Source of the DNA: Escherichia coli
Lineage (GTDB): Bacteria > Pseudomonadota > Gammaproteobacteria > Enterobacterales > Enterobacteriaceae
Assembly: GCA_031701365.1 (NCBI GenBank)
Contig: GCA_031701365.1_4118.1
Reading direction: 5' to 3' (one strand)
Length of the DNA stretch: 64,000 bases
Shown piece by piece: positions 1 through 64,000 of this stretch (position 1 is its first letter; each line of letters begins with the position of its first letter). The notes beneath the pieces are model-generated. The model worked only from the letters and a program-made list of their open reading frames with translations, did not search any database and was not told the origin of the DNA. The position numbers and the translations under genes are program-made.

Positions 1-88
1 GTATTCCACGCAGTAAGTACGAAAAAAGTAGTTGCCATTGATAGTAAAGTACTGTAATATAGTTTCATTAACTCAAGGAGTCAATACA

Positions 89-673
89 ATGCGTAACTAT
101 ACTAAATTCATCCGTTCACTTCATGCAATGGAAACTAATAAAGAGATCCTTACAGCTTGTCGGTTAGCTGGTCTGGAGATCGTCGGTGCGGGTTCTTCCC
201 GTATTGTATTCGCTTTAAATGATCGGTTAGTGATTAAGGTCGCTAATAGTGATGCTGGCGTAGATCAAAATGAAACTGAATGTAAGGTATGGAATTTTTT
301 AGATTATGACCGTCCGCACCTTAAACAGTACTTTGCAAAGGTGCATATGCATTTATGCGATCCTGATAATCTGTTTATTGTTATGGATCGTTTGAGTATT
401 GCAAGCAAAGGTAGTGCAAAGCACATAACGGCCTGTAATGAATTAAAGTACAATGCTAAACGTAAAACTATTGAACGCCAACACCATTTTGCCGATGCAC
501 TACAACACGTCGATGATACATTATCAACACTAACGATCATTGATATCAGCAAGACGAACATAGGCCAGGATCGCAACGGCTTGATTAAAGTACTTGATTA
601 CGGTTTAACCCGCAATATCTGGAATCAGTACTATAAAAAGCGTGATGTAAAAACCGTAACAATAACACGATAA
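89..673 (+). CDS. putative protein kinase-like protein
   Basis: ORF 32-673; likely start ATG 89 after AAGGAG. Gly-rich loop GAGSSRIVF, VIKV lysine, DISKTNIGQD catalytic-loop-like and DYG (DFG-like) motifs. Confidence 0.45.
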   Translation: MRNYTKFIRSLHAMETNKEILTACRLAGLEIVGAGSSRIVFALNDRLVIKVANSDAGVDQNETECKVWNFLDYDRPHLKQYFAKVHMHLCDPDNLFIVMDRLSIASKGSAKHITACNELKYNAKRKTIERQHHFADALQHVDDTLSTLTIIDISKTNIGQDRNGLIKVLDYGLTRNIWNQYYKKRDVKTVTITR

Positions 674-687
674 AAAAGATTAAAAAA

Positions 688-716
688 GGGATTGACTCAG
701 GTCAGTCCCTTTGCTA
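688..716 (+). terminator. rho-independent terminator-like hairpin
   Basis: GGGATTGAC-tcag-GTCAGTCCC inverted repeat followed by T-rich tract. Confidence 0.5.
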
Positions 717-744
717 TTATATATTCATTGAGAGATAACTCACT

Positions 745-775
745 GACCCATAGGGTGCGGAAGTGTATCTATTAT
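745..775 (+). promoter_or_regulatory. conserved intergenic box, copy 1
   Basis: CCCATAGGGTGCGGAAGTGTATCT; near-identical copy at 2665-2690, each downstream of a hairpin and upstream of a promoter cassette. Confidence 0.4.
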
Positions 776-809
776 ATAAGTATTCAGTACTGAAAACTAT
801 TTTATAAAA

Positions 810-875
810 AGTACTTGCATTGTACTTAGAATCAAGTATAATGTTTTATATCGAGAGGGGGAAATGGTTCTCCCT
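810..875 (+). promoter_or_regulatory. PeSL-like cassette 1: early-type promoter plus 5-prime UTR stem-loop
   Basis: -35 TTGCAT 815-820, 16-bp spacer, -10 TATAAT 837-842; hairpin AGGGGGAA-atgg-TTCTCCCT 855-874 just upstream of RBS. Confidence 0.6.
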
Positions 876-896
876 GGTACATTAAGGAATAAAATC

Positions 897-1118
897 ATGA
901 CTACGATGACTTGCGTTCACGCTTCAAATCTTCTGAATGATGCAGCATTTAAAGCAGGTGAAGAATATCAATGCTATCGGGATGAAAATAAAAAAGTTTT
1001 CGTCGTTGATGCTAACGGTTTCCATATTGAATTACAATCCGGCTTCACTGGTGTTGATGGTAAATCAGTATGGGGCGTACAGGACGATAACGGTACATAT
1101 CATTTTAAACGTAATTAA
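897..1118 (+). CDS. hypothetical small early protein
   Basis: ORF 864-1118, start moved to ATG 897 after AAGGA RBS downstream of cassette 1. Confidence 0.6.
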   Translation: MTTMTCVHASNLLNDAAFKAGEEYQCYRDENKKVFVVDANGFHIELQSGFTGVDGKSVWGVQDDNGTYHFKRN

Positions 1119-1121
1119 GTA

Positions 1122-1180
1122 TTGACAAAGTATATCAGTACTGTATAATAGTTTACATCAAGGGGAGAATAGTTCTCCCC
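1122..1180 (+). promoter_or_regulatory. PeSL-like cassette 2
   Basis: -35 TTGACA 1122-1127, TG-extended -10 TATAAT 1144-1149; hairpin GGGGAGA-atagt-TCTCCCC 1162-1180. Confidence 0.6.
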
Positions 1181-1202
1181 ACCAATAAAAGGAAACAAAA
1201 TT

Positions 1203-3944: not shown

Positions 3945-4135
3945 TGCGTAAAGGGATCTAGTACTGATTCAGAAAAAAGTCAAGGCGTTTTTAAAATTAT
4001 GCGTTAAAAAAATGCATAGGTAATCCCTTGACTTTTTTGAAATAAAAGGGATTGGACTATGGCAAAATGCGTAGGGGGCTAAAGGGCGGGTAACCTTAGC
4101 GACTTCGATAAAGGGGTATTACGAATAAAATGTTA

Positions 4136-4163
4136 TTGACTTTTTATACAATTCATATATTAT
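4136..4163 (+). promoter_or_regulatory. sigma70-like promoter upstream of family A array
   Basis: -35 TTGACT 4136-4141, 16-bp spacer, -10 TATTAT 4158-4163. Confidence 0.45.
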
Positions 4164-4193
4164 ATGATTGATATTATTTTCAAGGGAGTCCCT

Positions 4194-4391
4194 ATGCGTA
4201 TTTTAACTCAAGCAGAACACCACGAAAGACTTATCAATAACATGGCTATGATAATGTATAAGTCACATGAACGTGGTATTGCCTATAAGCGTGAATTAAT
4301 TATGGCACTATTCATTGGAACTAACTTTCAGGAAAGGTATGTCAAGGATTGGATTTGGTATTTAATTGAAGATGTAACGAGTAAACTATGA
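4194..4391 (+). CDS. family A small protein 1
   Basis: C-terminal FIGTNFQERYV..IEDVTSKL; start moved to ATG 4194. Confidence 0.65.
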   Translation: MRILTQAEHHERLINNMAMIMYKSHERGIAYKRELIMALFIGTNFQERYVKDWIWYLIEDVTSKL

Positions 4392-4588
4392 AAATGCGTA
4401 AATTAACCGAAAAAGAATATCAATCACTGTTACGTAAAAACTACGTAAAGATTTACAATACAGACACACACGTAGAACGAATGGAGTTATACCTTTTGAT
4501 TACATTGGGAACTAACTATCAGGATGCATGGGTGATTCAATATATGGATGCATTGAAAAATGAAATATTGTCCACGAGGAAACAATGA
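4388..4588 (+). CDS. family A small protein 2
   Basis: LGTNYQDAWV motif; ATGA overlap with upstream stop. Confidence 0.65.
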   Translation: MKMRKLTEKEYQSLLRKNYVKIYNTDTHVERMELYLLITLGTNYQDAWVIQYMDALKNEILSTRKQ

Positions 4589-4794
4589 AAACTATAACAC
4601 GAACCCAATCATTCGGACTTATCTTGAAATACATGGACTTAATGGTGGATATCAGCAAAGACCTGCCTAAAACTGCAATTGAAGTTGCAAGAGCAGAGAT
4701 CCGCATGTTGGCTGTACTGAACACAAACCATCAGGAAGAGTATGTTGACGATTGGATTCGATTTTTAATAGAAGATATTAAGAGTAAACTATGA
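4585..4794 (+). CDS. family A small protein 3
   Basis: LNTNHQEEYV..IEDIKSKL. Confidence 0.65.
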   Translation: MKTITRTQSFGLILKYMDLMVDISKDLPKTAIEVARAEIRMLAVLNTNHQEEYVDDWIRFLIEDIKSKL

Positions 4795-5003
4795 TTATAT
4801 TAACACCTGAAGAATATAAGAAACGTTTTAAATCTGTCCAGGCTGAAATATTACTTATATACCTTTCAAATGCAGATCTTAACTTATCAAGGGTAATGGA
4901 GAAGGATTTACTTATGGGTGCATTTTTGGATACAGACTTTCAGGAGTATTATGTAGGAGAATACTTTATTGCACTTCAGAACCACATTAAGAGTAAACTA
5001 TGA
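4791..5003 (+). CDS. family A small protein 4
   Basis: LDTDFQEYYV..IKSKL. Confidence 0.65.
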   Translation: MIILTPEEYKKRFKSVQAEILLIYLSNADLNLSRVMEKDLLMGAFLDTDFQEYYVGEYFIALQNHIKSKL

Positions 5004-5215
5004 TTATTCTAGAAAAATCATATCAATATACTGAACGCATCGCTGCCAGACAACTTGAAATCCTCATAATATACGAAGAGACTTCTGATTTAAACTTAGC
5101 CGAGGTATTGGAAAATGAAATACTTTTGGGTGCATTCTTGGGAACAGACTATCAGGAGTATTATGAGGAAAAGTATTTGTCATCTCTTGAGAAATACGTC
5201 AGGAGCAAACTATGA
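5000..5215 (+). CDS. family A small protein 5
   Basis: LGTDYQEYYE..VRSKL. Confidence 0.65.
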   Translation: MIILEKSYQYTERIAARQLEILIIYEETSDLNLAEVLENEILLGAFLGTDYQEYYEEKYLSSLEKYVRSKL

Positions 5216-5439
5216 AACATTTAAGTAATATAGAGAAGAATAAAATTATCATTGCTGTAATAAACAAATATTTTACACTTCCACAAAAAGAATGTTTATC
5301 TATAAGGGAACACAGGATAAACACCACCGAGATTCGCATGTTGGCTGTACTGGGGACTAACTTCCAAGAAGGCTATGTTCATGAGCACATCGTTGCACTC
5401 ACTAATTACATAATGGACAAATGTAATGAACATCATTAA
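5212..5439 (+). CDS. family A small protein 6
   Basis: LGTNFQEGYV. Confidence 0.65.
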   Translation: MKHLSNIEKNKIIIAVINKYFTLPQKECLSIREHRINTTEIRMLAVLGTNFQEGYVHEHIVALTNYIMDKCNEHH

Positions 5440-5650
5440 TAACTTTGAATACGAGGCCCGTGCTAAGAGTGCCAGAAAAAAAGAGAACACCATTTACTTC
5501 ACTATGATGTACTTACAATGGACTGAGATTGAAGAAAAGGTTGCTGAAGTATGGATGTTGGAATTCATGGGGACGCAGTATCAGAATAGGTTTGCGGGTG
5601 AGTATATCAATGTTCTTATGAAACAAATAGAAAGAAAGGAAAAGAACTAA
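5426..5650 (+). CDS. family A small protein 7
   Basis: MGTQYQNRFA. Confidence 0.6.
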   Translation: MNIINNFEYEARAKSARKKENTIYFTMMYLQWTEIEEKVAEVWMLEFMGTQYQNRFAGEYINVLMKQIERKEKN

Positions 5651-5808
5651 TGGTTTTCATTAACATATCTGACCAACTCGATACTAAACTAAAAGTCGAG
5701 AAGAGTGAGGGATGGATGCTGTACTTTCTTGGAACTTCTCATCAGAATTTTTATATCCATGAACACATAGTTGCACTCACAAATCTAATAAGGGATAAAT
5801 GCAAATGA
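5650..5808 (+). CDS. family A small protein 8 (52 aa, not in ORF track)
   Basis: Hand-translated MVFINISDQLDTKLKVEKSEGWMLYFLGTSHQNFYIHEHIVALTNLIRDKCK; below track length cutoff. Confidence 0.55.
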   Translation: MVFINISDQLDTKLKVEKSEGWMLYFLGTSHQNFYIHEHIVALTNLIRDKCK

Positions 5809-6062
5809 AACACTTAACACAAGATGAATATTCACTTAGAATTCGAAAGCTCACCCCAGAAGCAAGAGTAATCTACGATGACGATGCACTTTCATGGAAC
5901 GAGATGAAAGTTAAAGTTCATGAGCTATGGTTGCTGTACTTTGTGGGAACCCAATATCAAGAGAAATATTGTACCGATTATCTTGAACAACTAATGGATC
6001 TTATACAGATAAAACTAAATGAACGAATTGTGGAAAAATATGAAAACTTTATCAAGCACTGA
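5799..6062 (+). CDS. family A small protein 9
   Basis: VGTQYQEKYC; C-terminal extension past usual IK.KL end. Confidence 0.6.
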   Translation: MQMKHLTQDEYSLRIRKLTPEARVIYDDDALSWNEMKVKVHELWLLYFVGTQYQEKYCTDYLEQLMDLIQIKLNERIVEKYENFIKH

Positions 6063-6291
6063 GTATCAAACTGCCCTCTTCTCCCTTCTAAACACTCTCC
6101 GCACGAACAATAAACTTTATAATTCCCGTGAAGCTGATATTGTCAACGGTGAACTTTATCTTATGAAATTCATTGGAACAAACTATCAAGATCTGTTCAT
6201 TCAACGATACCTGGCAGCATTGAGAAACGAAATATCAGATAAAACCCGCCAAGCCAGAAGAGAATGGAAGAAACAATGCGACAAAGACTAA
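6019..6291 (+). CDS. family A small protein 10
   Basis: IGTNYQDLFI; start uncertain (6019 or 6040). Confidence 0.55.
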   Translation: MNELWKNMKTLSSTEYQTALFSLLNTLRTNNKLYNSREADIVNGELYLMKFIGTNYQDLFIQRYLAALRNEISDKTRQARREWKKQCDKD

Positions 6292-6527
6292 ATCACAAAA
6301 TGTATTGTAAACTATTACAGAATCTGGGACAAAAACACTATGATACAGTATCTGAAATATTACCCTATGATATCATGCGTTTAATTCATAGTGAGGCAGA
6401 GATGCTTGTACTGATGACAGGCACTGATAAAACAGCAATTACCAAATCTATAGATATGTTCATCGATGCACACTGCCAACACATTAGAACCGAGATATGG
6501 AGACGTGAGAATGAAAATCCTGACTGA
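6264..6527 (+). CDS. family A-like small protein 11 (divergent)
   Basis: MTGTDKTAI in place of LGTNYQ; start uncertain. Confidence 0.45.
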   Translation: MEETMRQRLNHKMYCKLLQNLGQKHYDTVSEILPYDIMRLIHSEAEMLVLMTGTDKTAITKSIDMFIDAHCQHIRTEIWRRENENPD

Positions 6528-6726
6528 GCATGAGTATTACAATAGGTTAAGAACGATACAAGGAAAAGTCTCGTGGACTTTTTTAGATAATTCTATTGCA
6601 GAAGCGGACCGATGTGTTATAATAGCTGAAATGAAGCTATTACTCTTCATTGGGACAAACTATCAAAGTATCTACATAGACGCATGGTTAAGCAGCTTAC
6701 GTCTGAAGTCGGTGAGTTTAAAATGA
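6511..6726 (+). CDS. family A small protein 12
   Basis: IGTNYQSIYI; start ATG 6511 (MKILTEHEY). Confidence 0.6.
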   Translation: MKILTEHEYYNRLRTIQGKVSWTFLDNSIAEADRCVIIAEMKLLLFIGTNYQSIYIDAWLSSLRLKSVSLK

Positions 6727-6941
6727 GAAAATTAATAGGTTTCGAATATGTTAAGCTTCTACAAACCTGTGGAATCAGAAGGAGAATGATTCAAAAGGAT
6801 AAAAGAATTGCCGAAGAACGAAAGTATATAATGATAACTGAACTTTATGTCTTAACACTCTTAGGCACAAACTATCAACACACTTATGTAGACCTATGGA
6901 TCGATGCACTACAGAAAGAGGTTAAAAGTAAATGCAAATGA
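6723..6941 (+). CDS. family A small protein 13
   Basis: LGTNYQHTYV; ATGA overlap start 6723. Confidence 0.6.
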   Translation: MRKLIGFEYVKLLQTCGIRRRMIQKDKRIAEERKYIMITELYVLTLLGTNYQHTYVDLWIDALQKEVKSKCK

Positions 6942-7150
6942 TTAATTTAAGTAAAGACGAATTTTATGTTATACTGGCGAAAACTTATCCAGCACGTAAG
7001 GCCGTTTATGATAGTCACATTATTGAACCCTCAAAGAAGTTGATTTTAGTAAATGAGATAAAGATGCTTTCAGTCTTAGGAACAAACTATCAAGAGAATG
7101 CGGTACTGATGTTAATTGATGCCCTCCAGCGAGAGGTTAAACGTAAATGA
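6932..7150 (+). CDS. family A small protein 14
   Basis: LGTNYQENAV; N-terminus MQMINLSKDEF. Confidence 0.65.
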   Translation: MQMINLSKDEFYVILAKTYPARKAVYDSHIIEPSKKLILVNEIKMLSVLGTNYQENAVLMLIDALQREVKRK

Positions 7151-7392
7151 AAATGATTAATTTAACTTACCATGAATATCAAAAACGTTTAAATGCATCC
7201 AGAGATATAAGGATTCAAATATTCAATAACAAAAGATTGAAGCCTGATATCAGGAAAATCAAAATCATAGAAGCCGTGTTGTGCAACTTCCTAGGGACTA
7301 ACTATCAGGAAGGTAAGGTAGAAAACTATCTTATAGAACTCATGAATAGTATTGAAAATAAATGCGAGGATAATGATCATGAAAATGATTAA
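7147..7392 (+). CDS. family A small protein 15
   Basis: LGTNYQEGKV; N-terminus MKMINLTYHEY. Confidence 0.65.
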   Translation: MKMINLTYHEYQKRLNASRDIRIQIFNNKRLKPDIRKIKIIEAVLCNFLGTNYQEGKVENYLIELMNSIENKCEDNDHEND

Positions 7393-7642
7393 TTTAAGTA
7401 AAGATGAATATACCGAGCGTATGACAAAAAATACTCTTAAACGTAATACAATCTATCACAACCCAGAAATTCAACACAGTAAGAAAATGATTATGATACG
7501 TGAGTTAAAGATGGGTGTATTCTTAGGAACAAACTATCAAGAGATGGAAGTAAATCGCTTAATCGCGGAGTTACTAATGGAAATCAAAGGTAAGCTGTAC
7601 TTTTATCAAATGACCCGTCCACTAAGGTGTACTGATCGATGA
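7379..7642 (+). CDS. family A small protein 16
   Basis: LGTNYQEMEV; start 7379 (MKMINLSKDEY) by analogy with the junction at 7147. Confidence 0.6.
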   Translation: MKMINLSKDEYTERMTKNTLKRNTIYHNPEIQHSKKMIMIRELKMGVFLGTNYQEMEVNRLIAELLMEIKGKLYFYQMTRPLRCTDR

Positions 7643-7881
7643 ATATTGTGAATAACATCAGATTAGCAGAAAGATTTGATAGAATTGGGGAAGCACTGAG
7701 AAGATACGATAAAGAATATGGTCATTTGAGCTTTTCTATAGAAAAGAGATATGAACTTGAAGCAGAGTTTAAAATGCAGAGTCTCTTAGGCACACAGTAT
7801 CAAAACCAATATATTCAAACTTGGATTGATTGTTTAATCCAGACAATTTACGTAAGGAACATTAAATGCAAAATGAAATGA
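7639..7881 (+). CDS. family A small protein 17
   Basis: LGTQYQNQYI. Confidence 0.6.
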   Translation: MNIVNNIRLAERFDRIGEALRRYDKEYGHLSFSIEKRYELEAEFKMQSLLGTQYQNQYIQTWIDCLIQTIYVRNIKCKMK

Positions 7882-8111
7882 TATACTTAACATATAATGA
7901 ATACGTCGAGAGATTAGTTAGTGCCAAGAGATATACAAATCAACTTCCTCACAACCCAAACCAAACCCCAGAGGAAAAGAATGCGGAAGCTCTATTCCAA
8001 GCACTACCATACCTTCTTGGAACTGATAGGCAGGAGTATCACGTTGAACGTATAATTAAATCTCTTAAAATCACTATTAAGGAAAAGATACATGAAGCAC
8101 TTGACAGATGA
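7866..8111 (+). CDS. family A small protein 18
   Basis: LGTDRQEYHV. Confidence 0.6.
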   Translation: MQNEMIYLTYNEYVERLVSAKRYTNQLPHNPNQTPEEKNAEALFQALPYLLGTDRQEYHVERIIKSLKITIKEKIHEALDR

Positions 8112-8322
8112 TGAACATGGGCTTATAGTAATGGATGTAATCAACATCGAATACAAAAAGTTGATACGCTACCGTTGTTATGAAGATAAGCAACTAGTTC
8201 TAGCAGAACAGAAGTTGTTTCGACTCTTAAACACAAACTACCAAGCACAATACGAAGAATCGTATATGTACCTTTTGGCGAGGAAAGCAAAAAGAGATTA
8301 TGAAAATTTTAAGCAAAGGTGA
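8092..8322 (+). CDS. family A small protein 19
   Basis: LNTNYQAQYE. Confidence 0.6.
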   Translation: MKHLTDDEHGLIVMDVINIEYKKLIRYRCYEDKQLVLAEQKLFRLLNTNYQAQYEESYMYLLARKAKRDYENFKQR

Positions 8323-8521
8323 TTCAGTAATATTACTTATAGAGAGTTCAAGTAAATTCTTAAACATAACACTGTCTGATATAGATGAAGATGATAAAGA
8401 AGTACTGAGAGCAGATTTAAGAGTACTGTTGCATCTCGGAACAAACCTACAAGAAGAATATGTAGAGTACTACATTGATGAACTTAAAGAATCAGTACTG
8501 AGAAGATGCAAATGCGAATGA
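8300..8521 (+). CDS. family A small protein 20
   Basis: LGTNLQEEYV. Confidence 0.6.
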   Translation: MKILSKGDSVILLIESSSKFLNITLSDIDEDDKEVLRADLRVLLHLGTNLQEEYVEYYIDELKESVLRRCKCE

Positions 8522-8733
8522 TTACCGACGAAGAATACCTAACAATTATAAATGGATTGTTTTTGAAGTTGTTTGTTATTAACACATCAGATATACCAGA
8601 TATGGATAAAATTATTAAGAGAAATGAAATCTATGTTCTAGCTACCCTGGGAACTAACTATCAAGAATACGATATTAATGATTATATTAATACACTTAAA
8701 CGAGCGATTGAACTAAAATGCCAAAACCACTAG
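8506..8733 (+). CDS. family A small protein 21
   Basis: LGTNYQEYDI. Confidence 0.6.
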   Translation: MQMRMITDEEYLTIINGLFLKLFVINTSDIPDMDKIIKRNEIYVLATLGTNYQEYDINDYINTLKRAIELKCQNH

Positions 8734-8933
8734 GAACAGCAGAATACATTGAACTCATGGGATTACACTTCTCATCCTTTCAGAAACTTATGCGAGAATC
8801 AAAGAATGATTTAGAATATACCATCAGAGGTTCAGATTTAAGAATGCTTCTCACCCTAGACACAGATTCCCAAGAGCGTTTTGTCAATGAGCACATTAGA
8901 GCACTTTTAATGGAAATTAAAAGTAAACTATGA
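8718..8933 (+). CDS. family A small protein 22
   Basis: LDTDSQERFV..IKSKL. Confidence 0.6.
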   Translation: MPKPLGTAEYIELMGLHFSSFQKLMRESKNDLEYTIRGSDLRMLLTLDTDSQERFVNEHIRALLMEIKSKL

Positions 8934-9363: not shown

Positions 9364-9364
9364 T

Positions 9365-54812: not shown

Positions 54813-54869
54813 GACGTATCAGAATTCGGTGATATAATTTGATTACATCACCAATGTGGAGAAGTTGAA

Positions 54870-55196: not shown

Positions 55197-55803
55197 CAGT
55201 GCATATGTAATCGGTATTATTATTTCTGGTATGCTTGCATATAACTATAACAGAAGTGTTATAGGTTATGTAGTACTTGGTACAGTACTAAGTCCAGTGA
55301 TTGCTATTGGTCTTCTTGTTATGCTAGGTGAGAAAAATACAAGCTTCTTTATTACTAAAGAACTTGATAAAATCACCCCAGCACCAGAAACAGTTATTCC
55401 AGAAGTTAAAGAAGAAGTTAAAGAAGTTGAAGTTCAAATGCAAGTTAAAGTGTATAATACACTTGAAGAAACTGACCCTAAAGTTGTAGTGAATGTAGTT
55501 CCAGTCGTTGAAGAGGTGAAACCAAAAGCTCCTAAAGTACAGAAAAATACTAAAACTGCAAAGAAAGCTCGTTACACTAAAGGTAAGAACAAAGGTAAAT
55601 CTAAGGATGAACCACAACTAGGTGTTCATGACCATACTGCACAAATTGCAACGGCAGCGACCGCAGCAGCAATCGTAACATCACCAATCTACAACAATGA
55701 TGATTACAGTGATTATAGCCGTCACAGCAGTTCTTCCTCTGATTCTTGTTCCTATGATAGCTCTAGTTCTGATTCAAGTTCATCTTCTGGAAGTTGTGAT
55801 TAA
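55174..55803 (+). CDS. membrane protein with charged repeat region and Ser/Asp-rich tail
   Basis: Two N-terminal hydrophobic helices, KEEVKEV/KPKAPK charged segment, C-terminal SSSSSDSCSYDSSSSDSSSSSGSCD. Confidence 0.6.
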   Translation: MLTPIILSSAYVIGIIISGMLAYNYNRSVIGYVVLGTVLSPVIAIGLLVMLGEKNTSFFITKELDKITPAPETVIPEVKEEVKEVEVQMQVKVYNTLEETDPKVVVNVVPVVEEVKPKAPKVQKNTKTAKKARYTKGKNKGKSKDEPQLGVHDHTAQIATAATAAAIVTSPIYNNDDYSDYSRHSSSSSDSCSYDSSSSDSSSSSGSCD

Positions 55804-56132
55804 TGTCAATGAAACCACTAATTCAACATAATATTTTTTATAGGTCATTATTCAAAATTCAAGATGATTTTTATCAGACGTTGAGTAATGATCTTATAGG
55901 TAAAACTGTACGATATTCGGAACAATACATCAAACGTATGACAAGTCAGTATATTGACCCTGAATACGAATACGACATTGAACACATTAATCCCAATACT
56001 AGAATGAAAATCATTGAGATATTTAAGAATGGGAGAACTATAGGTGCTGAAATTGAGTACTTGAATTGTGATTGTTACATAGATACAGAGTTGAGTTTGG
56101 ATTATCTTGTTTTAGTGGATGATGAGGAATAA
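55803..56132 (+). CDS. family D-like small protein
   Basis: SNDLIGKTVRY. Confidence 0.5.
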   Translation: MSMKPLIQHNIFYRSLFKIQDDFYQTLSNDLIGKTVRYSEQYIKRMTSQYIDPEYEYDIEHINPNTRMKIIEIFKNGRTIGAEIEYLNCDCYIDTELSLDYLVLVDDEE

Positions 56133-56134
56133 TT

Positions 56135-56350
56135 ATGATAACATTTTTCGCAATATATGGATTTGTAGCATTTGTTACATTTATAACCAACTTTCTAGTA
56201 CTTAATTGGGGTTGTTTTAAAGATGAAATCATGATTATCATGAATCTCCAAACAGCAGCACTGATGGCTATTATTTGGCCTGTAACGTTAGTATATATTT
56301 TTATTTCACTTACCCAAGATATTATTAACAAATATAAGAGAAAGAAATAA
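56135..56350 (+). CDS. small membrane protein
   Basis: Two hydrophobic segments (FFAIYGFVAFVTFITNFLVL, ALMAIIWPVTLVYIFI). Confidence 0.55.
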   Translation: MITFFAIYGFVAFVTFITNFLVLNWGCFKDEIMIIMNLQTAALMAIIWPVTLVYIFISLTQDIINKYKRKK

Positions 56351-56601
56351 TGTTCAACAACGACTTATCACATTTGCGATATCTTATGTCTTTGGCTGAT
56401 GATTTTATAAATGATCTGAAGCCAAAATATATTGGTCAAGAAGTACGATTAATAAACTCCAGAGGGTATGGAAAATATATTATTACTGATATGTATATTA
56501 GTGGTGGTGAATGGCGTTTTAAAATTAATACTTATCTTAAAGATGGTTCTTTTGCTGGAACACAAGTTACTAAACACACTAATATTATATGGTTGGAGTA
56601 A
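56350..56601 (+). CDS. family D-like small protein
   Basis: DLKPKYIGQEVRL. Confidence 0.55.
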   Translation: MFNNDLSHLRYLMSLADDFINDLKPKYIGQEVRLINSRGYGKYIITDMYISGGEWRFKINTYLKDGSFAGTQVTKHTNIIWLE

Positions 56602-56603
56602 TA

Positions 56604-57347
56604 ATGAAACATTTCTTAGAAGTAACCGTACCTGATGATAAAGATTTATACATTGTAGGTGATTTGCATGGTAATGGTAAACTATGGGATGCTACAGTGA
56701 AAGAATTTGGTATTACACACAATGATTATGTTTTCAGTGTAGGTGATATTATCGACCGTGGAGAACAAAATTCAAAGCTCCTTTTTGAATTTTTGTTCGG
56801 AGAAAATCGTTACATGATTGCGGGTAATCATGAGATGATGTGCGTTGATTCGGAAACACTTCGAGATTGGTATCATTGTTGGATAAGTAATGGTGGTGAT
56901 AAATTCCTTGATGAAGTTGGAGGAACAGGCATTCAATTCTTTCGTCAGTACTTAAAAGATCTCCCTATGATTATCCAAATCAATCACCGAGGCTTGAAGA
57001 TTGGGTTAGTTCATGCTGGAGTTCCGTTGGAATATACAACATGGGAACGATTTGTTAATGGGACAAAATCACTTAGTGCTGATATAATTGATAAGTGCTT
57101 GTGGGATAGGAAAACATTCGATTATTGTAGAACGAATAATACCTATTATGCACCTAAGTTAGATGGAGTGCATTGTGTCTTTAGTGGACATACAGCAGTT
57201 ACTGATCCACTCATTTATGGTAATCGCATTTGGATTGATAGTCAATTCTTGACGGGTGACTTAACTCTCGCTACTCCACAAAGTGGTGGGATGAGATACT
57301 TACGTAAAGAAAAAGATGAGTACTCATTCAATCGTTTCAAAAGGTAA
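56604..57347 (+). CDS. Ser/Thr protein phosphatase (PPP/lambda-phosphatase-type metallophosphatase)
   Basis: GDLHG, GDxxDRG and GNHE motifs; ORF 56589 with start ATG 56604 after GGAG. Confidence 0.8.
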   Translation: MKHFLEVTVPDDKDLYIVGDLHGNGKLWDATVKEFGITHNDYVFSVGDIIDRGEQNSKLLFEFLFGENRYMIAGNHEMMCVDSETLRDWYHCWISNGGDKFLDEVGGTGIQFFRQYLKDLPMIIQINHRGLKIGLVHAGVPLEYTTWERFVNGTKSLSADIIDKCLWDRKTFDYCRTNNTYYAPKLDGVHCVFSGHTAVTDPLIYGNRIWIDSQFLTGDLTLATPQSGGMRYLRKEKDEYSFNRFKR

Positions 57348-57352
57348 TAATT

Positions 57353-57622
57353 ATGCATGATGAAGTTAAAAAATATTTGAATGATAGATATATTATGAAA
57401 AAATCTATTAATTCTATCCTAAAAGATCATGCTAATCAAATACGTGAGATTCTATCAAATAAACTTATTGGTTGTTCAGTTGAGTTCAATTACAAAAAGA
57501 ATGTAGTGAAGATTGGAGTTATTAAACGTGTAGTTGCTGTTTATGACCAAAATGTATATGTTGAAATTGAATATGATGGTAAATTATCACAATTAAGTAC
57601 TGAAGATTTAACATTTTTATAA
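57353..57622 (+). CDS. family D-like small protein
   Basis: SNKLIGCSVEF. Confidence 0.5.
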   Translation: MHDEVKKYLNDRYIMKKSINSILKDHANQIREILSNKLIGCSVEFNYKKNVVKIGVIKRVVAVYDQNVYVEIEYDGKLSQLSTEDLTFL

Positions 57623-57632
57623 GGAAATAGAA

Positions 57633-57860
57633 ATGAAAGTAATTCAAGTTATGGTAGAAAAATACCAAACTGAAGATGGTCGTATTTTTGATTCAGCTAA
57701 ACAAGCTGAACACCATGAACGTATTATTTCGGGTGCACGTAAAGTGTGTCCTACATGTAGTGGAACACAACAAGTACCGTCAGAAGATTACCGCAGCTTT
57801 TATGCTTGTCCACACTGTGATGGGAAAGGCTATGTAGAAAAACAAGAGGTATGGAAATGA
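57633..57860 (+). CDS. small zinc-finger protein (DnaJ-type CxxCxGxG-like)
   Basis: CPTCSGTQ and CPHCDGKG motifs. Confidence 0.6.
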   Translation: MKVIQVMVEKYQTEDGRIFDSAKQAEHHERIISGARKVCPTCSGTQQVPSEDYRSFYACPHCDGKGYVEKQEVWK

Positions 57861-58270
57861 AATTGTATTGCTTAACTAATATGTACTGTCAAGGTGTCCA
57901 AGCTGGTATTCAAGCATTCCATGCTGGTGTTAAACTAATTAAAGAATATGAAGGTACTGCTTTCAGTACTATTATTGATGAATGGTACTATGAACACGAA
58001 ACTATTGTAGTACTAAATGCTGGTGGACATGATAAATTAAATTCTTATTATAACAACCTTAGCAAACAGGGGAAAGTTCCGTTTGCCAAATTCAATGAAG
58101 CTGGGTTGAATGATGCTATTACCTGTGTAGCAGTACTGTGTACGTCTGAAATGATTGAAGACATGGCTGTTATGCGTATGAATCTTCCTGCTGGTGATCA
58201 ACTAATGCAAGTAAAATATGGTGCATTGTTTGACACACTAAAAGCAATCAGTACAATGAGGACTATTTGA
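57857..58270 (+). CDS. hypothetical protein
   Basis: ORF 57851-58270; ATGA overlap start 57857. Confidence 0.55.
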   Translation: MKLYCLTNMYCQGVQAGIQAFHAGVKLIKEYEGTAFSTIIDEWYYEHETIVVLNAGGHDKLNSYYNNLSKQGKVPFAKFNEAGLNDAITCVAVLCTSEMIEDMAVMRMNLPAGDQLMQVKYGALFDTLKAISTMRTI

Positions 58271-59469
58271 TGGATTTTCCAGAGAAGTTATTTGTTGCAC
58301 GTTCCTATGTAAACCACAACCAAGTTGATGGTTTTATTATCGATGCAACAAAATCACATACAAAAGCGTTTGAAACAAAGAAAGAGAGAGCAGAGTACTG
58401 GGCAAAGAAGAACAATCTTCCATCGTTATATATTGACAACGTTCCAACTACTGGATTTTGTGTAGTTGATAAATTAACAATTCATGCACGAGAAACATAT
58501 TTCACAATCCGTCACCCAGAAGGATTTGAATTTATGATTAGTGCCAAAAACATGAATGATTTAATTATCAATAACGATATAATCAAAGGTGTTTTTGTAG
58601 ACCCAATGTTTTTCAACAATAACTTAGAATTAATTAATGGTAAAACAAAAACATTTGCTAAGTTAGTTGAAAAAGAAAATAAAAAAGAACAACAAAAAGA
58701 AACTGTAGCAGGTCTTAAAGTTGGTGATGGTTTCACGTATCTCAAAGAAGATTACTATTACTGCGGTAAAGTACATGCAATTTGTATAAAGAAAACTAAA
58801 GAATTTGCATACCCCGACAAAAGTTCTGTTTATCATTTACTTTTTAACAGTACTCGTGGAACTTATGCATTGAATCAACGTTTGGATAATTACAATCTTG
58901 AACCTCGTGCACTCTTGAATAAGAAGACTACGGCAGATGAAGAAATTAAACTTGCTAATGAATTTTGGCAAAGCTATAGAACAAACAGACATAACCCATT
59001 AGGTGAATCTAACATTCCAGTACTGGTACACAATAAATCATTTAAAGCAAAAGACCTAAAAATTAAATATGAAGAAATAAATGTTGATGATCTTATGAAT
59101 AATGGACGTTTCAACGAGAACGTACCATTTATGACTAAAGATAATGAACAATCTTATCGCGTATTTTTTGGTGTAAGTAATAATACAACACGTAGTTATT
59201 ATGGACGTAGCGGGGATTATAATATTCATTATAATGATAAATTTGAACGCTTTAGTGCATACCCAGTTCAAATTGATGATAATGGAATTATGTCAATGGA
59301 TGTTGATATTAATGAGCACACATCATTTAGTACATGGAACGGTTATCGTTCACCATTCTTTCCACCAAATGAACGAAAAACATCAAGTTCTCGTTACTAC
59401 CAAGATAAGCCGTGTCACGTTCAACTATCAATTAGTAATCCACTTTATATTGGAAAGTATTATCTATAA
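58270..59469 (+). CDS. hypothetical protein (399 aa)
   Basis: ORF 58267-59469; ATG 58270 overlapping upstream stop. Confidence 0.65.
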   Translation: MDFPEKLFVARSYVNHNQVDGFIIDATKSHTKAFETKKERAEYWAKKNNLPSLYIDNVPTTGFCVVDKLTIHARETYFTIRHPEGFEFMISAKNMNDLIINNDIIKGVFVDPMFFNNNLELINGKTKTFAKLVEKENKKEQQKETVAGLKVGDGFTYLKEDYYYCGKVHAICIKKTKEFAYPDKSSVYHLLFNSTRGTYALNQRLDNYNLEPRALLNKKTTADEEIKLANEFWQSYRTNRHNPLGESNIPVLVHNKSFKAKDLKIKYEEINVDDLMNNGRFNENVPFMTKDNEQSYRVFFGVSNNTTRSYYGRSGDYNIHYNDKFERFSAYPVQIDDNGIMSMDVDINEHTSFSTWNGYRSPFFPPNERKTSSSRYYQDKPCHVQLSISNPLYIGKYYL

Positions 59470-59480
59470 AGGAATATACA

Positions 59481-60899
59481 ATGAGCATTTTAGCAATTCT
59501 TGAAAGCATTAAAAATACTAGCAGTACTCTAGGCAAAAAAGCTATTCTTGAACAAAATAAAGATAATGTAACTTTGCAAAAAGTACTGAAATATACACTC
59601 GATCCTAGTATTGTAAGTGGGTATAAAAAGCTACCAGACGCTGATAACGTGTATCAACATATGACATTGGATGAAGCTATTGATAAACTAGAATGCATCT
59701 ATAAGCGTGCATTGACGGGACATACAGGGCGTGATTTCATTGCTTCAGTACTAGGTAGTGTGAGTCCAGATGATGCTGAAGTTCTTCGTAAGATGCTTAC
59801 AAAGAACTTAGATTGTGGTATTCAAGAAAAGAACTGCAATGATGTATTTGGTAAAGGATTTATTAAAGATGAACCATATATGCGTTGTTCTTTGCTTGAT
59901 AAAAAGACTGTTAAGAACATCAACTTCAAAGGTCATGGTTATGCTGTCTCCGAGGTCAAGATGGATGGTCAGTACTTAAACCATGTAGTCATTAATGGTG
60001 CTCTTACCTCTTCCTCCCGTAATGGTAAACTATATGACTTCTTAGGTTGTCGTGATGGTGAGATGGCAGGTCTTGCACATCAAATTCAAATGAATGATGA
60101 ACGTTTTAGTAGTGGTGTCGTCTTTATGGGTGAAGGTCTAGTACTTGATAATGACGGTGAAACTATTCTTCCACGAACAACTGGTAATGGTATCATTCAG
60201 AAGGCTGGTAAAGATAGTATTAGTCAGAATGAAGCAATGCGTACTGTATTTGTACTATGGGATGTTGTTCCGTATGATGCATTCTGTGAAGGTACATGGA
60301 ATGTAAAACGTAAAGAACGTCGCGAACTTCTTGAATCTGCCATCAATGTATTGGGTAGTGATTTTGTACGTATGGTGAAATACCGTAAGGTTCAAAACAT
60401 TAAAGAAGCATTTGAGTACAATAACGAACTCATGGTTCAGGGTGAAGAAGGATCAGTACTGAAATGTGAAGATGGTATCTGGAAATCACATACATCTCCT
60501 AAGCAGTTGAAAGTAAAACTAAAAATGCAATTGGATTTGCGTATTGTTGGTTTCAACGAAGGTGAAGGTAAGCGTAAAGGTTCACTTGGTTCTTTACAAC
60601 TTGAAAGTGCATGTGGCACACTGAAGGTAAATGTAGGAACAGGTATTAAAGAGAAAGATGCAGAGTGGACGTTCAAAACCATTTGGGAACGAATGCAAGA
60701 ACTAATTGGTAAAGTCGTTACCGTTGAGTGCAATGAGATTGTAATCGACAAGCGTACAGGTGAACCATCACTATTTTTACCAGTGTTTATTGAATTTAGA
60801 TTTGACAAGAACACATGTGACGATTATACTCGTATTTTAGAAATTCGTGATAGTGCTGTTGAGGTATTCTCGAACAGTATCATTGAAGCACTTAGCTAA
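59481..60899 (+). CDS. ATP-dependent DNA ligase (T4 gp30 homolog)
   Basis: N-terminus aligns with T4 DNA ligase as recalled (GxKAILEQNKDN), adenylation-site KMDGQ (KxDG) and further T4-ligase-like blocks. Confidence 0.9.
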   Translation: MSILAILESIKNTSSTLGKKAILEQNKDNVTLQKVLKYTLDPSIVSGYKKLPDADNVYQHMTLDEAIDKLECIYKRALTGHTGRDFIASVLGSVSPDDAEVLRKMLTKNLDCGIQEKNCNDVFGKGFIKDEPYMRCSLLDKKTVKNINFKGHGYAVSEVKMDGQYLNHVVINGALTSSSRNGKLYDFLGCRDGEMAGLAHQIQMNDERFSSGVVFMGEGLVLDNDGETILPRTTGNGIIQKAGKDSISQNEAMRTVFVLWDVVPYDAFCEGTWNVKRKERRELLESAINVLGSDFVRMVKYRKVQNIKEAFEYNNELMVQGEEGSVLKCEDGIWKSHTSPKQLKVKLKMQLDLRIVGFNEGEGKRKGSLGSLQLESACGTLKVNVGTGIKEKDAEWTFKTIWERMQELIGKVVTVECNEIVIDKRTGEPSLFLPVFIEFRFDKNTCDDYTRILEIRDSAVEVFSNSIIEALS

Positions 60900-60918
60900 T
60901 CATTTATTGGAGGTAATT

Positions 60919-61710
60919 ATGAAATTTGTTGTAACATCTGACGTACACGGTGGAACTGATTACCTCCATAGCGGTGATTACAGTGATGTAGTACTGATCA
61001 TTGCTGGTGACTTTGATGAAGTTAAACGCAGTCGTTATCGTACTGGGATCGAAGAACTGTGTAAGCAGTTCTATAAGGTAGTACTGGTTCCAGGAAATCA
61101 CGAATACTACGGTTCCAATATCCAAAAGACGCATCAAGTACTATCCAATATGCAGGATGAGATTCCTAATTTTATCTTTTTGCAAAACAAATTTGTATGG
61201 CTGGATGGAGTACTGCTTGTTGGTAGTACTCTGTGGACAGACTTCGATAAAGGTAATTCTTTGACGAAGTTTGATGCTCGTCAGAAGATGAACGATTACA
61301 AACATATCCGTCATGGAACAACATCAGAGCCTTGGCGTAAGAAACTGACACCTGATGATACTGAGTTTATGCATCACAAAGATAAACAATTTATCAAAAA
61401 TTCTATTGACACAGTTCGCTTTATGCATGATAATGATTTCAAGGTCATCGTGATTACTCATCACGCACCAAGTTATCAAAGTGTTTCACCAAAATATAAA
61501 AATGATTCACTAAATGGTTGTTACTGTTCCGATATGGATCAGTACATTGAAGATTTGGGTGCTGATGTTTGGATTCATGGTCATGTTCATAGTAGCTTTG
61601 ACTACCACATTGGTAAGACACGTATCATTTGTAATCCACGAGGCTATGAATCGTATAGTGGAGCTTGTGAGAATTTTGATTACAATCCTAAATTTGTATT
61701 TGAAATTTAA
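60919..61710 (+). CDS. metallophosphoesterase (calcineurin-like)
   Basis: SDVHG, GDFDE, GNHEYYG and GHVH motifs; ORF 60847 with start ATG 60919 after GGAGG. Confidence 0.8.
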   Translation: MKFVVTSDVHGGTDYLHSGDYSDVVLIIAGDFDEVKRSRYRTGIEELCKQFYKVVLVPGNHEYYGSNIQKTHQVLSNMQDEIPNFIFLQNKFVWLDGVLLVGSTLWTDFDKGNSLTKFDARQKMNDYKHIRHGTTSEPWRKKLTPDDTEFMHHKDKQFIKNSIDTVRFMHDNDFKVIVITHHAPSYQSVSPKYKNDSLNGCYCSDMDQYIEDLGADVWIHGHVHSSFDYHIGKTRIICNPRGYESYSGACENFDYNPKFVFEI

Positions 61711-61722
61711 TGTGAGGATACA

Positions 61723-62106
61723 GTGTCATTGATTTATTTTGAACTACCAGAATATACCAATTATCCAAGCCGAGTTATTTGCTCAGTTTATAGTAATGCA
61801 TATCATCACTTGTTAGTGAATAGTAATAAAGCTGTGCATTATTATCGAAATAAAGAACCACGTACATTAAAGAATCGTTATGGTTTTGACCCAACTAACA
61901 CTGAAGTTGAACTCTGTGATCTGTTTGGGGAAGTAATGGTGGTGTTGAAACGAGATATTCATCTTTTCCATACATACAAACTTAATCAGTACTTTATGGA
62001 AACACTGTCTATACGTTCCCATGCTCCGATGATTAAAGTTGATTTGAATTTTGTTGATGATAAATTGAAATATGATTTCATAAATTCACTTGTTTATTTG
62101 GAGTAA
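61723..62106 (+). CDS. hypothetical protein
   Basis: ORF with probable GTG start after GAGG. Confidence 0.5.
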   Translation: MSLIYFELPEYTNYPSRVICSVYSNAYHHLLVNSNKAVHYYRNKEPRTLKNRYGFDPTNTEVELCDLFGEVMVVLKRDIHLFHTYKLNQYFMETLSIRSHAPMIKVDLNFVDDKLKYDFINSLVYLE

Positions 62107-62107
62107 T

Positions 62108-62512
62108 ATGAATATACGTTCAGTACGAATATTTTCATTTGTTGATATGAATGAAAAACACTCTTATGTGTTTGAAACTGTCAATAAGTTAAATCCTCAT
62201 ACGGCAAAAATGATTGAAACCATGAAGATCTTGAGTTTGCATATAGAAGTTTACTATCTTCATGACGATTCTGTTTTTGTATATGATGATGGATGGTATG
62301 ACGGTGTGTTTTATGATGACATTAGCACTACTGCTGATTACTACTTTCTAGTGAGTAACCCACTATTCAGTACTAAAACTTTGTTTGACATTACCGATAC
62401 AAGCGTGTATGATACAAGTCATGTTGAGTTACTTAAGTTTGATCCAGTATTATTCAACAAAGAAACGGCGTATTGGATGACTGATTTCTTTTCAAATATT
62501 CCAGTAAAATAG
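62108..62512 (+). CDS. hypothetical protein
   Basis: ORF 62090-62512, start ATG 62108 after GGAG. Confidence 0.55.
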   Translation: MNIRSVRIFSFVDMNEKHSYVFETVNKLNPHTAKMIETMKILSLHIEVYYLHDDSVFVYDDGWYDGVFYDDISTTADYYFLVSNPLFSTKTLFDITDTSVYDTSHVELLKFDPVLFNKETAYWMTDFFSNIPVK

Positions 62513-62513
62513 T

Positions 62514-62542
62514 TTGGACATTTTAAATCTTAGTGATATAAT
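62514..62542 (+). promoter_or_regulatory. sigma70-like promoter upstream of clpP-like gene
   Basis: -35 TTGGAC 62514-62519, 17-bp spacer, -10 TATAAT 62537-62542. Confidence 0.5.
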
Positions 62543-62576
62543 ACTCACTACAACGAAATAATAGAGGAAATTAACA

Positions 62577-63272
62577 ATGGTTGAACAATTCATGTTTGGT
62601 GGTTATGCTAATGGCGAAGTACGTAACATTTCTATTCCTTACGTAGTTGAGAAAGTTAATGGTTCAGAACGTACATATGATCTAGCATCTCGTATGATGC
62701 AAGACCGTATCATTTTCCTTGATACTGATTTCAATGATCAAATGGCACATATCATCAAACAACAATTGGTGTGGTTAGACTCACAAGGTGATTCCCCTAT
62801 TACATTCTACATTAGTTCACCAGGTGGTTCAGTACACGCAGGTTTGGGTATTGCAGACGTTGCTAAGTCTTGTATTTCCCCAATCCGCACTGTAGTTATG
62901 GGTTATGCGGCATCAATGGGTTGCTATACACAATCTGTTATTGGAACTAAAGGTTTCCGTTTAGGTGGTAAACGCTCATACTTCATGTGTCACCAAGTAA
63001 GTTCTGGTACACAAGGTCTAATTACAGACCAGAAGATTTCCCTACAACATTCTGATGCACTGAATACATTGTTGACCAAAGAAATTGCAGAAGCAGTAGG
63101 CGTATCACATGAACAATTACTAAAAGATGCTGACCGCGATTTGTGGTTAAATGCAGAAGAAGCACTTGAATATGGTGAACATGGTTTCATTGATGGTATT
63201 ATTCTTGGACCACGTAACGAAGAAGGCAAGTACTTAGTTAAGCGTCGCGGCGGTGTGGAAGAGTGGGTGTAA
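62577..63272 (+). CDS. clpP: ClpP-like serine protease (peptidase S14)
   Basis: SPGGSV, GYAASMG (catalytic Ser), MCHQ (His) and DADRDLWLNAEEALEYG matching bacterial ClpP blocks. Confidence 0.85.
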   Translation: MVEQFMFGGYANGEVRNISIPYVVEKVNGSERTYDLASRMMQDRIIFLDTDFNDQMAHIIKQQLVWLDSQGDSPITFYISSPGGSVHAGLGIADVAKSCISPIRTVVMGYAASMGCYTQSVIGTKGFRLGGKRSYFMCHQVSSGTQGLITDQKISLQHSDALNTLLTKEIAEAVGVSHEQLLKDADRDLWLNAEEALEYGEHGFIDGIILGPRNEEGKYLVKRRGGVEEWV

Positions 63273-63320
63273 GATAGATTTTGATGCCTCAATATGGGGC
63301 ATCATCTTTGTGGAGATTAT

Positions 63321-63611
63321 ATGAAAGTACTAGTACGTAATAATACGGAAGTAGCAAATGTATTAGAAGATTCCGATTTTATTAATGTTGCGTTCGATCA
63401 AATTAGTGCAGTAGCACTTGAGTTAAAAAATGTGGATGAATCTGAGCGTGTACTAAATGGTTTTGCAATTGTACTTGAATTAATGAAAGAAGTACTAATT
63501 AAAAAGAACATTAATCCAGTTGATGCGGTTCAACATGCAGAAGCTGTGCGTAAAGAACACGGTACATTCTCTGACAAAAAATACATTCAAACTGATGAGG
63601 TAAAAGAATAA
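63321..63611 (+). CDS. hypothetical protein
   Basis: ORF 63294-63611, start ATG 63321 after GGAG. Confidence 0.55.
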   Translation: MKVLVRNNTEVANVLEDSDFINVAFDQISAVALELKNVDESERVLNGFAIVLELMKEVLIKKNINPVDAVQHAEAVRKEHGTFSDKKYIQTDEVKE

Positions 63612-63612
63612 T

Positions 63613-64000
63613 ATGTCCAATGCACAATATAAAGATGGTTATGACGCATACAAAGCAAAAGTAGTTCTAAGTGCTGAACAGCTAAAAATGCAGCATCCAT
63701 TATATCGTCAGGGCTATCGTGCAGCACAAGCAGAAGCAATGAAGAAAAATAATGTAACTTTCCCTACTACGCTATATGATATTCCAAAACGTCCACACAT
63801 TTTTAAAGCTGAATGGACTGATATTATGGCAGCGACAAAGCGTCCACGTTTTGCTAAATTACACACCGATGAAGGTCGCTGGTTGCTAATGGGGATTATG
63901 AAAGCAGTTGAGAATCAATCTCATAAGATTGTTCGTTATAAAGATGTTGTTGCTATGGTTGATAAAGCATTTGACCTTGTACTTCAATATGGTTATGATG
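63613..64000 (+). CDS. hypothetical protein (3-prime partial, runs off window)
   Basis: ATG 63613 after GAGG; open to window end in hand translation. Confidence 0.55.
   Translation, partial: MSNAQYKDGYDAYKAKVVLSAEQLKMQHPLYRQGYRAAQAEAMKKNNVTFPTTLYDIPKRPHIFKAEWTDIMAATKRPRFAKLHTDEGRWLLMGIMKAVENQSHKIVRYKDVVAMVDKAFDLVLQYGYD

Follow-up and report, generated by a model that had tools for sequence, protein, structure and literature searches.

Short palindromes that are repeated through a whole genome are known from cyanobacteria, where HIP1 (highly iterated palindrome 1, GCGATCGC) is 10-300x over-represented, occurs at about one copy per gene or denser and is maintained by selection (PMC5861425). 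Genomes with HIP1 also carry orphan methyltransferases (PMC4390886). In a stretch of 64,000 nucleotides deposited as Escherichia coli (contig GCA_031701365.1_4118.1, the whole of which is called the window here), the hexamer palindrome AGTACT was found in comparable excess. The window comes from a jumbo phage. In the enterobacterial RaK2-like jumbo phages, selection keeps AGTACT as a signal at the DNA level, at 2-7 copies per kb, and it was present in all four enterobacterial genera that were sampled.

Avoidance of palindromes is a textbook trait of phages. In phage T7 the EcoP15I sites all stand in one orientation, and the first-step-transfer DNA of phage T5 is without EcoRI sites. Among repeated genomic signals, Chi, the DNA uptake sequences and the FtsK orienting polar sequences (KOPS) have many weakly selected copies, whose density is kept while their positions turn over, and KOPS converge on dif, which gives a local orientation rule near a special point.

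Abundance, anatomy and conservation of AGTACT

The window belongs to Asteriusvirus, i.e. to an E. coli jumbo phage of the 121Q/PBECO4 type in the RaK2-like group, with a genome of ~350 kb. Between 50 and 62 kb it was 99.2% identical to phage 121Q and ~95-96% identical to PBECO4, phAPEC6 and Sharanji; its first 20 kb were more variable among relatives. The guanine-cytosine (GC) content was 33%, and the + strand carried nearly all genes, which were called as open reading frames by a greedy procedure of our own.

Exact counting gave 200 copies of AGTACT, against 17.2 +/- 4.2 in dinucleotide-preserving shuffles (n=100, maximum 30, none reaching 200), which confirmed the strong over-representation noticed by eye in the first-pass annotation of this DNA; the local counts given there (~25 and ~23) came close to the exact values, 27 in the first 4 kb and 24 at 18.0-22.0 kb. 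Markov models of order 0, 1, 2 and 3 expected 21, 17, 38 and 77 copies, and AGTACT had the highest z-score among the 6-mers of the window. The longer form CAGTACTG was present 44 times with 0.7 expected, and the core GTAC 537 times with 189 expected. Within coding sequence, 173 copies were counted, meanwhile a synonymous-codon shuffle within genes gave 47.6 +/- 5.6 (maximum 64, n=300) and a codon-order shuffle 21.8 +/- 4.6. For the coding sequence of 18206-64000 alone, 146 copies were observed and 37.7 expected under the synonymous shuffle, an excess of ~+108. The annotation had stated that a frequency within the expectation of a codon- and dinucleotide-aware null model would speak against its claim; under these nulls far fewer sites arose, and AGTACT stood far above expectation.

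Other palindromes were shunned in the window: 26 hexamer palindromes had 0 copies (~85 expected in total), GATC had 108 copies with 217 expected (0.5x), and GCGC had none with 27 expected. In E. coli K-12, of which 50 kb were sampled to estimate the host density, only 3 AGTACT were present (0.06 per kb), while the phage had 2.6-3.1 per kb. This contrast of ~50-fold fits a self-marking function.

The excess held for the window as a whole, yet the enrichment was not uniform along it, since no site was found at 3966-8400 and at 10635-18205. Density was ~7 per kb at 1-3965 and 8401-10634, and 3.4 per kb at 18206-64000. The features used below were as follows (strand where one applies).

1..64000: dispersed AGTACT palindrome, 200 copies, extended consensus TTC-AGTACT-GAA
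1..3965: AGTACT-dense early region with sigma-70-type cassettes, 27 sites, 6.8 per kb; by homology probably the distal part of a ~21 kb terminal repeat
1122..1149, + strand: promoter TTGACA-16-TATAAT with AGTACT in the spacer directly 5' of the -10 element
2312 and 9974, with AAAAGTACTTGCAT at 815, 1671 and 3183: cassettes with AGTACT over or just upstream of the -35 element
3966..8400, + strand: island 1, without AGTACT and AGTAC, carrying many tiny phrog_4148 paralogues in a row
8401..10634: region B, flanked by the two islands, with 16 full palindromes (7.2 per kb), centre of mirror symmetry
9974-10002: strong promoter TTGACAGTACT...TATAGT in region B
10635..18135, + strand: island 2, paralogue genes, no ACT on the + strand over 7.5 kb
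18206..64000: region C, 157 AGTACT, 3.4 per kb
42192..42713, + strand: orphan Dam-family (PF05869) DNA N6-adenine methyltransferase gene next to a cytidylyltransferase-like gene, candidate modifier
50010-51152, 59481-60899 and ~60919-61710, in region C: conserved genes bearing AGTACT, i.e. rnlA, DNA ligase and phosphoesterase

Most copies (86%) were inside coding sequence and 27 were intergenic or at gene edges; density was 4.0 per kb in non-coding and 3.0 per kb in coding DNA. As had been reported, the sites occurred in every reading frame (77, 38 and 57 in frames 0, 1 and 2), in and around the -35 and -10 elements of the early promoter cassettes, and inside conserved genes, with four in rnlA, six in the ligase gene and five in the phosphoesterase gene. 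Ser-Thr dipeptides were encoded as AGTACT in 56% of cases, with 13% expected. For [KQE]-Tyr followed by a T-initial codon the share was 36%, and for an A-final codon followed by Val-Leu it was 44%, where 9-13% would be expected across such classes. The dipeptides ST, VL and [KQE]Y[FLSYCW] were themselves over-represented 1.6-1.8x, meanwhile the reversed controls TS and LV stood at chance. The motif thus presses hard enough to shift which codons are chosen and which dipeptides occur. Among the Ser codons of the phage AGU is the most frequent (36%), partly through the motif, and a tRNA-Ser with anticodon ACU, which reads AGU, was found in 121Q (75464-75555, confirmed by ARAGORN).

The flanks of the palindrome were two-fold symmetric, with C at -1 and G at +1 in ~45% of copies and TTC...GAA as the top extension, and carried about no information beyond ~+/-3, so AGTACT is not a dispersed repeat. 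A mobile mini-element could likewise be rejected, for no sequence was shared past the near flanks, and even the repeat families of region B had little in common past the motif and its near flanks. A role as sigma-70 promoter element was rejected too: the position of AGTACT relative to -35 and -10 was variable (in the spacer, over -35 or upstream of -35), which argues against a core promoter element, and the large majority of copies lie in coding sequence. Over short range in four genome segments the spacing of sites was slightly more even than random (coefficient of variation 0.83-0.92), and neither helical nor codon periodicity was seen in it.

Between the window and Ecwhy_1 (84% identical), 80% of the sites were intact, compared with 43% of all same-frame hexamers, and divergence at third codon positions was 7% inside the motif and 28% outside. 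Both gain and loss were seen, with 97 sites common to three genomes and 24 and 31 that were lineage-specific. Across genera, between which synonymous sites are near saturation, only 6 of 29 positions were shared with PHA46 and 4 of 14 with GAP32, and density was nevertheless kept. The symmetric consensus of 8-12 bp, the codon-aware nulls, the realised fractions of 36-56% and the conservation at synonymous sites all bear out the earlier view that this is a positively selected DNA-level signal and no codon artefact.

The whole genome of 121Q (348 kb) had 903 AGTACT with 100 expected, which were present throughout, including the structural genes on both strands, and peaked at 5-8 per kb at 130-155 kb. 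More distant phages were each sampled over 41-50 kb. AGTACT was the top 6-mer in Klebsiella phage RaK2 (119 vs 12 expected), Cronobacter phage GAP32 (253 vs 14) and Salmonella phage PHA46 (112 vs 12), and was depleted in the Pseudomonas relative PA5oct (3 vs 14). A palindrome at or above ten times a composition-aware expectation, as is typical of the HIP1 type, was recorded for the window, 121Q, RaK2, GAP32 and PHA46, with 10-18x in the last three. These results indicate a signal at the DNA level with many copies, each weakly selected, and a reader that this clade encodes or is otherwise linked to.

The outer bases differed by genus. They were C/G in Asteriusvirus, meanwhile in GAP32 and PHA46 position -1 was A or C and position +1 was T or G, a shift that would agree with a reader drifting in specificity from one phage lineage to the next. 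At 100-150 kb of PA5oct the reverse-complement pair TGCAGA/TCTGCA was in ~4-fold excess and CTGCAG in 3-fold excess, and these words could reflect another signal of comparable type.

The AGTACT-free islands and the terminal repeat

Island 2 was free of ACT on the + strand in all frames and between genes, where ~130 copies would be expected from the frequency in the window (one per 58 nt). The next longest gap of ACT in the window was 494 nt, AGT was at its normal level in the island (198 copies), and in the 348 kb genome of 121Q this gap was the sole such stretch for any 3- or 4-mer. TCT was also lowered (0.3-0.6x), while CCT and GCT were normal. AGTACA, which on the bottom strand reads TGTACT, took the place of AGTACT in all three frames and in intergenic DNA (5.2 per kb). 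Since the density of AGTACA in island 2 equals that of AGTACT plus AGTACA in region C, the density of GTACT on the bottom strand is unchanged (5.5 per kb in island 2 and 5.8 per kb in region C).

Island 1 showed the opposite polarity. AGTAC was absent (3.5 expected), AGTACA had 0 copies, and 9 of the 11 GTAC cores stood in the context [CGT]GTACT, of which 8 were TGTACT (1.0 expected), in several frames; its half-sites were therefore confined to the top strand. The half-sites of the two islands face one another, with region B between them. Transcription runs the same way through both islands, and yet they differ in polarity, so the polarity belongs to the DNA and not to the mRNA. Outside the islands, a genome-wide excess of AGTACA over TGTACT tracked the coding strand in both gene orientations and is probably a codon effect.

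The ACT purge was retained in 121Q (161804-169313), in Ecwhy_1 (7.8 kb, ~80% identical, 12850-20687 of the sampled segment), in fEgEco12 (8.3 kb, 29020-37311), in Sharanji and in the sampled part of PBECO4. It was decaying in ph0011, with 21 ACT in 7 kb, six of them within AGTACT, and this phage had regained sites in island 1 too. No ACT-free stretch was found in the 41-50 kb sampled from each of GAP32, RaK2 and PHA46. A strand-polar, ACT-free island of this sort could not be matched to anything found described.

Simple origins of the islands were considered and rejected. The genes of island 2 shared EExFQxSLVxD with the flank genes and its base composition was that of region C, so it is no recent import of foreign DNA. 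Mutational conversion of ACT in island 2 did not agree with the several replacement words (ACA +6, ATT +6 and GCT +2 per kb), and AGTACA could not be taken as synonymous relics because it was found in all three frames and between genes.

As for gene content, island 1 holds ~25 overlapping tiny paralogues (phrog_4148). A very large and diverged paralogue family extends over ~9000-38000, whose members of 100-225 amino acids have only an acidic patch and FQxSLVxD in common and gave no Pfam match. The conserved FQYST(V/M) peptide of this family is encoded at 14317-14332 and 17139-17149 by half-sites that overlap in tandem (CAGTACAGTACAGTACA).

Direct terminal repeats of 20,993 bp were established for phage fEgEco12 by PhageTerm and restriction digests (PMC13070987). 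This repeat coincided with the AGTACT-dense early region (138 sites in 21 kb), and island 1 of fEgEco12 started at the inner boundary of the repeat (record position 20993). That boundary aligned to position ~4090 of the window, where GC dropped from ~0.40 to 0.34 and AGTACT from ~7 per kb to 0. By this homology a terminal-repeat boundary was inferred at ~4090. A repeat at 31-18580, which would follow if the start of the Sharanji record is taken as a PhageTerm terminus, was dropped because the digest-confirmed boundary of fEgEco12 lies elsewhere.

Two other observations were made on the early region. Chi (GCTGGTGG) was ~10x over-represented in 121Q, with 18 + 11 copies against 1.5 + 1.0 expected; nine copies in the same orientation and in varied contexts were clustered at 136-154 kb of that genome, in the early/terminal-repeat region, and the window had Chi at 1260, 2722, 50094 and 58019 (+) and at 41448 (-). 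In addition, ~190 bp at 1472-1663 were 87-88% identical to unrelated coliphages of ~135 kb (ECP26/EduardKellenberger type), a likeness that suggests recent exchange within the early region.

Candidate readers of the motif

The islands and their polarity point to a single-strand reader rather than a simple duplex-binding protein. The explanation favoured here, although only tentatively, is that a phage-encoded replication or recombination enzyme which acts on single strands reads the motif, with a primase-type initiator or a nuclease specific for single-stranded DNA as candidates. The recognised unit would be the strand-specific half 5'-GTACT-3' with the core ACT, and the palindrome would be two such halves overlapped on opposite strands. 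Both strands would bear the half-site over most of the genome, meanwhile in each island only one strand would be permitted to do so. The islands would lie just inside the terminal-repeat boundary, with opposite polarity on either side of a centre of 2.2 kb (region B), and the purged strands, i.e. the bottom strand to the left of region B and the top strand to the right, would correspond to both lagging-strand templates if a bubble opened in region B. In this case the motif may do harm only on strands that have to persist as long, unbroken single strands. Each site must be costly if the purge is to be absolute, which fits damage to, or priming on, such a strand.

Primases of the DnaG type and of T7 start from trinucleotides of the template whose 3' base is cryptic (PMC2910064, PMC2532735), and in general combine a trinucleotide core, an extended preferred context and action on single strands (PMC2910064, PMC2532735, PMC12839067); some nucleases specific for single-stranded DNA do so too. 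A primase site would be compatible with the pattern of the sequence counts, in which ACT is purged and GTACT enriched per strand. That palindrome and islands form one system, in which an enzyme reads ACT/GTACT at sites dense enough to tell phage from host DNA and forbidden on exposed bubble strands, is a rather doubtful extension. If true, it would be a new kind of self-recognition by sequence density, and the origin of replication or of terminal-repeat duplication in a 350 kb phage could be mapped from sequence alone.

Several points weigh against the enzyme acting on single strands. No reader protein emerged from annotation or from Pfam/PHROG scans of 18 window proteins and 10 nuclease, methyltransferase and DNA-binding candidates of 121Q, and the same scans gave no match of ScaI-like nuclease, TetR or MazF type. 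If bare ACT (19 per kb) is active, there is no obvious need for extra strong sites elsewhere, and two different readers may exist. Outside the islands, half-sites on a single strand were only ~2-4x enriched, compared with 12x for the palindrome, and these figures are explained equally well by additive half-site binding of a dimeric duplex-binding protein. Region B had no iterons, no obvious unwinding element and no other hallmarks of an origin, and GC skew followed transcription only. Island 1 bans a 5-mer and not a 3-mer, so the mirror is imperfect, and the position of the terminal repeat in the window is inferred from homology at 87% identity.

Two alternatives keep the motif in duplex DNA. 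AGTACT or its GTAC core might carry an epigenetic mark like that of the HIPs, set on phage DNA by an orphan methyltransferase of the phage, either for protection from a host nuclease of ScaI/Eco255I type or from a phage nuclease, or for a methyl-dependent step of packaging, repair or recombination. PF05869 and C5 methyltransferases were present in the phage by profile scans, and a syntenic copy of the Dam-family PF05869 gene was annotated or detected in 121Q, PBECO4, Ecwhy_1, PHA46, GAP32 and CBB. Since hexamer palindromes and GATC are otherwise so strongly avoided, a ten-fold enriched palindrome probably needs protection. RaK2 is reported to have two methyltransferases, its DNA reportedly yields only to enzymes that are insensitive to methylation (PMC3622015, where the data are not shown), and the HIPs of cyanobacteria co-occur with cognate orphan methyltransferases (PMC4390886). 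However, the wider family of the PF05869 enzyme is spread over many phage groups, and specificity of the window's enzyme for AGTACT is putative. Those wider relatives are presumably GATC methylases, as they are usually taken to be. Methylation of a target gives by itself no reason for its enrichment and leaves the strand-polar islands and the ACT purge unexplained. A methyl mark is considered unlikely as the explanation. Quite improbable, too, is the site of an abundant dimeric phage DNA-binding protein, which could be a genome organiser, a silencer of early promoters served by the host RNA polymerase, or a packaging/condensation factor. A two-fold symmetric consensus of 12 bp is typical of helix-turn-helix dimers, density peaks in the early promoter region with sites overlapping -35 elements and spacers, the enrichment of the palindrome is about the square of that of the half-site, and the nearest variant permitted in island 2, CAGTACAG, retains both flanks. 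For a symmetric dimer, however, TGTACT and AGTACA are the same, so binding by a dimer cannot explain why each island uses one form; the purge of every ACT is also unaccounted for, and no candidate protein was found.

The remaining alternatives have less weight. A signal in RNA would make AGUACU a site of processing or decay, and island 2 a source of ACU-free transcripts immune to an ACU-cutting endoribonuclease, in analogy to ACA-less and GCU-less mRNAs and the toxins MazF and MqsR. The mRNA-sense strand of island 2 is indeed without ACT in all three frames and between genes, TCT is also reduced there with CCT and GCT normal, and trinucleotide specificity is typical of mRNA interferases (PMC12151602). 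Nevertheless this explanation is disfavoured as very unlikely: symmetric flanks (C at -1, G at +1) are expected of duplex DNA and not of RNA, polarity does not follow transcription, as island 1 is transcribed in the same direction with the opposite polarity, and the low cost of a single cut in a polycistronic message whose paralogues are redundant hardly seems enough for an absolute purge. The literature search gave no RNase that cuts only ACU, and ChpB cuts ACA, ACG and ACU. A neutral molecular drive, in which very-short-patch-like repair or biased gene conversion makes functionless AGTACT sites from near-matches, was proposed earlier for HIP1 (PMC4390886), and here the deamination neighbours were mildly low against the synonymous shuffle (AATACT 0.69x, z = -2.6; AGTATT 0.88x, not significant). 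It is highly improbable, because the coding excess in region C dwarfs the neighbour deficit of ~-18 and most neighbours were at or above expectation; amino-acid content is bent towards the motif and spacing is more even than random, and suppression that is confined to parts of one genome and to one strand is not what a repair bias acting genome-wide would predict. The least credible proposal is that the phage hijacks or titrates SlmA, the host nucleoid-occlusion protein, and could so block cell division. The SlmA site GTGAGTACTCAC has the identical core hexamer, SlmA must occupy its DNA site to become an antagonist of FtsZ, its recognition helix is conserved across Gram-negative and gamma-proteobacteria (PMC3020112), and the motif is absent from the Pseudomonas relative PA5oct. 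But SlmA requires G1, T2, a purine at 3, A4 and G5 in each half of its 12-bp palindrome, and no full site was found in 348 kb. The flanks GTR and YAC were depleted 1.6-3x (11 and 9 copies; the background predicts 31.8 and 28.5, and position-wise frequencies predict 17.7 and 14.7), and G at -1 and C at +1 were the rarest flanks in all genera. SlmA hijack is thus largely refuted by flank statistics, and the depletion of SlmA-specific flanks may be active avoidance of SlmA binding.

Significance and comparison with known systems

A ten-fold selected palindrome across phages of four host genera implies an important undescribed factor. No literature linking AGTACT to these phages was found in full-text searches. 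The reader must be among ~600 phage genes, and the ph0011 sub-lineage is losing part of the constraint. The stretch of 7.5-8.3 kb that is ACT-free on one strand may locate the replication start or a zone of terminal-repeat processing. HIP1, which has been an open question in cyanobacteria for ~30 years, would gain a small and tractable viral counterpart.

Among known systems, Chi, the DNA uptake sequences and KOPS differ from AGTACT in being asymmetric and skewed genome-wide, whereas AGTACT is usually palindromic and polar only in the two islands. The SlmA site has the same central hexamer and a 12-bp dyad (PMC3020112), yet its required outer positions are depleted in the phage. Primase sites, such as 5'-GTC-3' of T7, which is extended to (G/T)(G/T)GTC, and the trinucleotides of DnaG, have a core on one template strand within an extended context, and this architecture matches the purge at the 3-mer level together with the enrichment at the 5-6-mer level in the AGTACT system. 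To our knowledge, no primase site has been described that is in excess as a palindrome or that a whole region lacks on one strand.

The islands resemble site-free or one-orientation segments of phage genomes in that total local absence or single orientation of a short word marks strong selection against an enzyme target, and avoidance of ACA in mRNAs is described for MazF (PMC12151602). They differ from such segments because the word that is purged here makes up one half of a motif under positive selection in other parts of this genome, and because the purge is mirror-symmetric about a point.

HIP1 is the closest known kind, and AGTACT shares three of its defining features; a further trait of this kind is a periodic distribution over 10-90 kb. 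Like HIP1, it occurs in all frames and between genes, and its copies are conserved beyond background. Unlike HIP1, it belongs to a phage clade and not to the chromosome of a cell, it is a hexamer rich in AT whose outer positions are weak, and its link with a cognate methyltransferase is putative. Strand-polar islands and a trinucleotide purge accompany AGTACT, neither of which is found in the two HIP1 papers (PMC5861425, PMC4390886). With these differences, AGTACT is best filed as an iterated palindrome of the known HIP1 kind, here in a virus.

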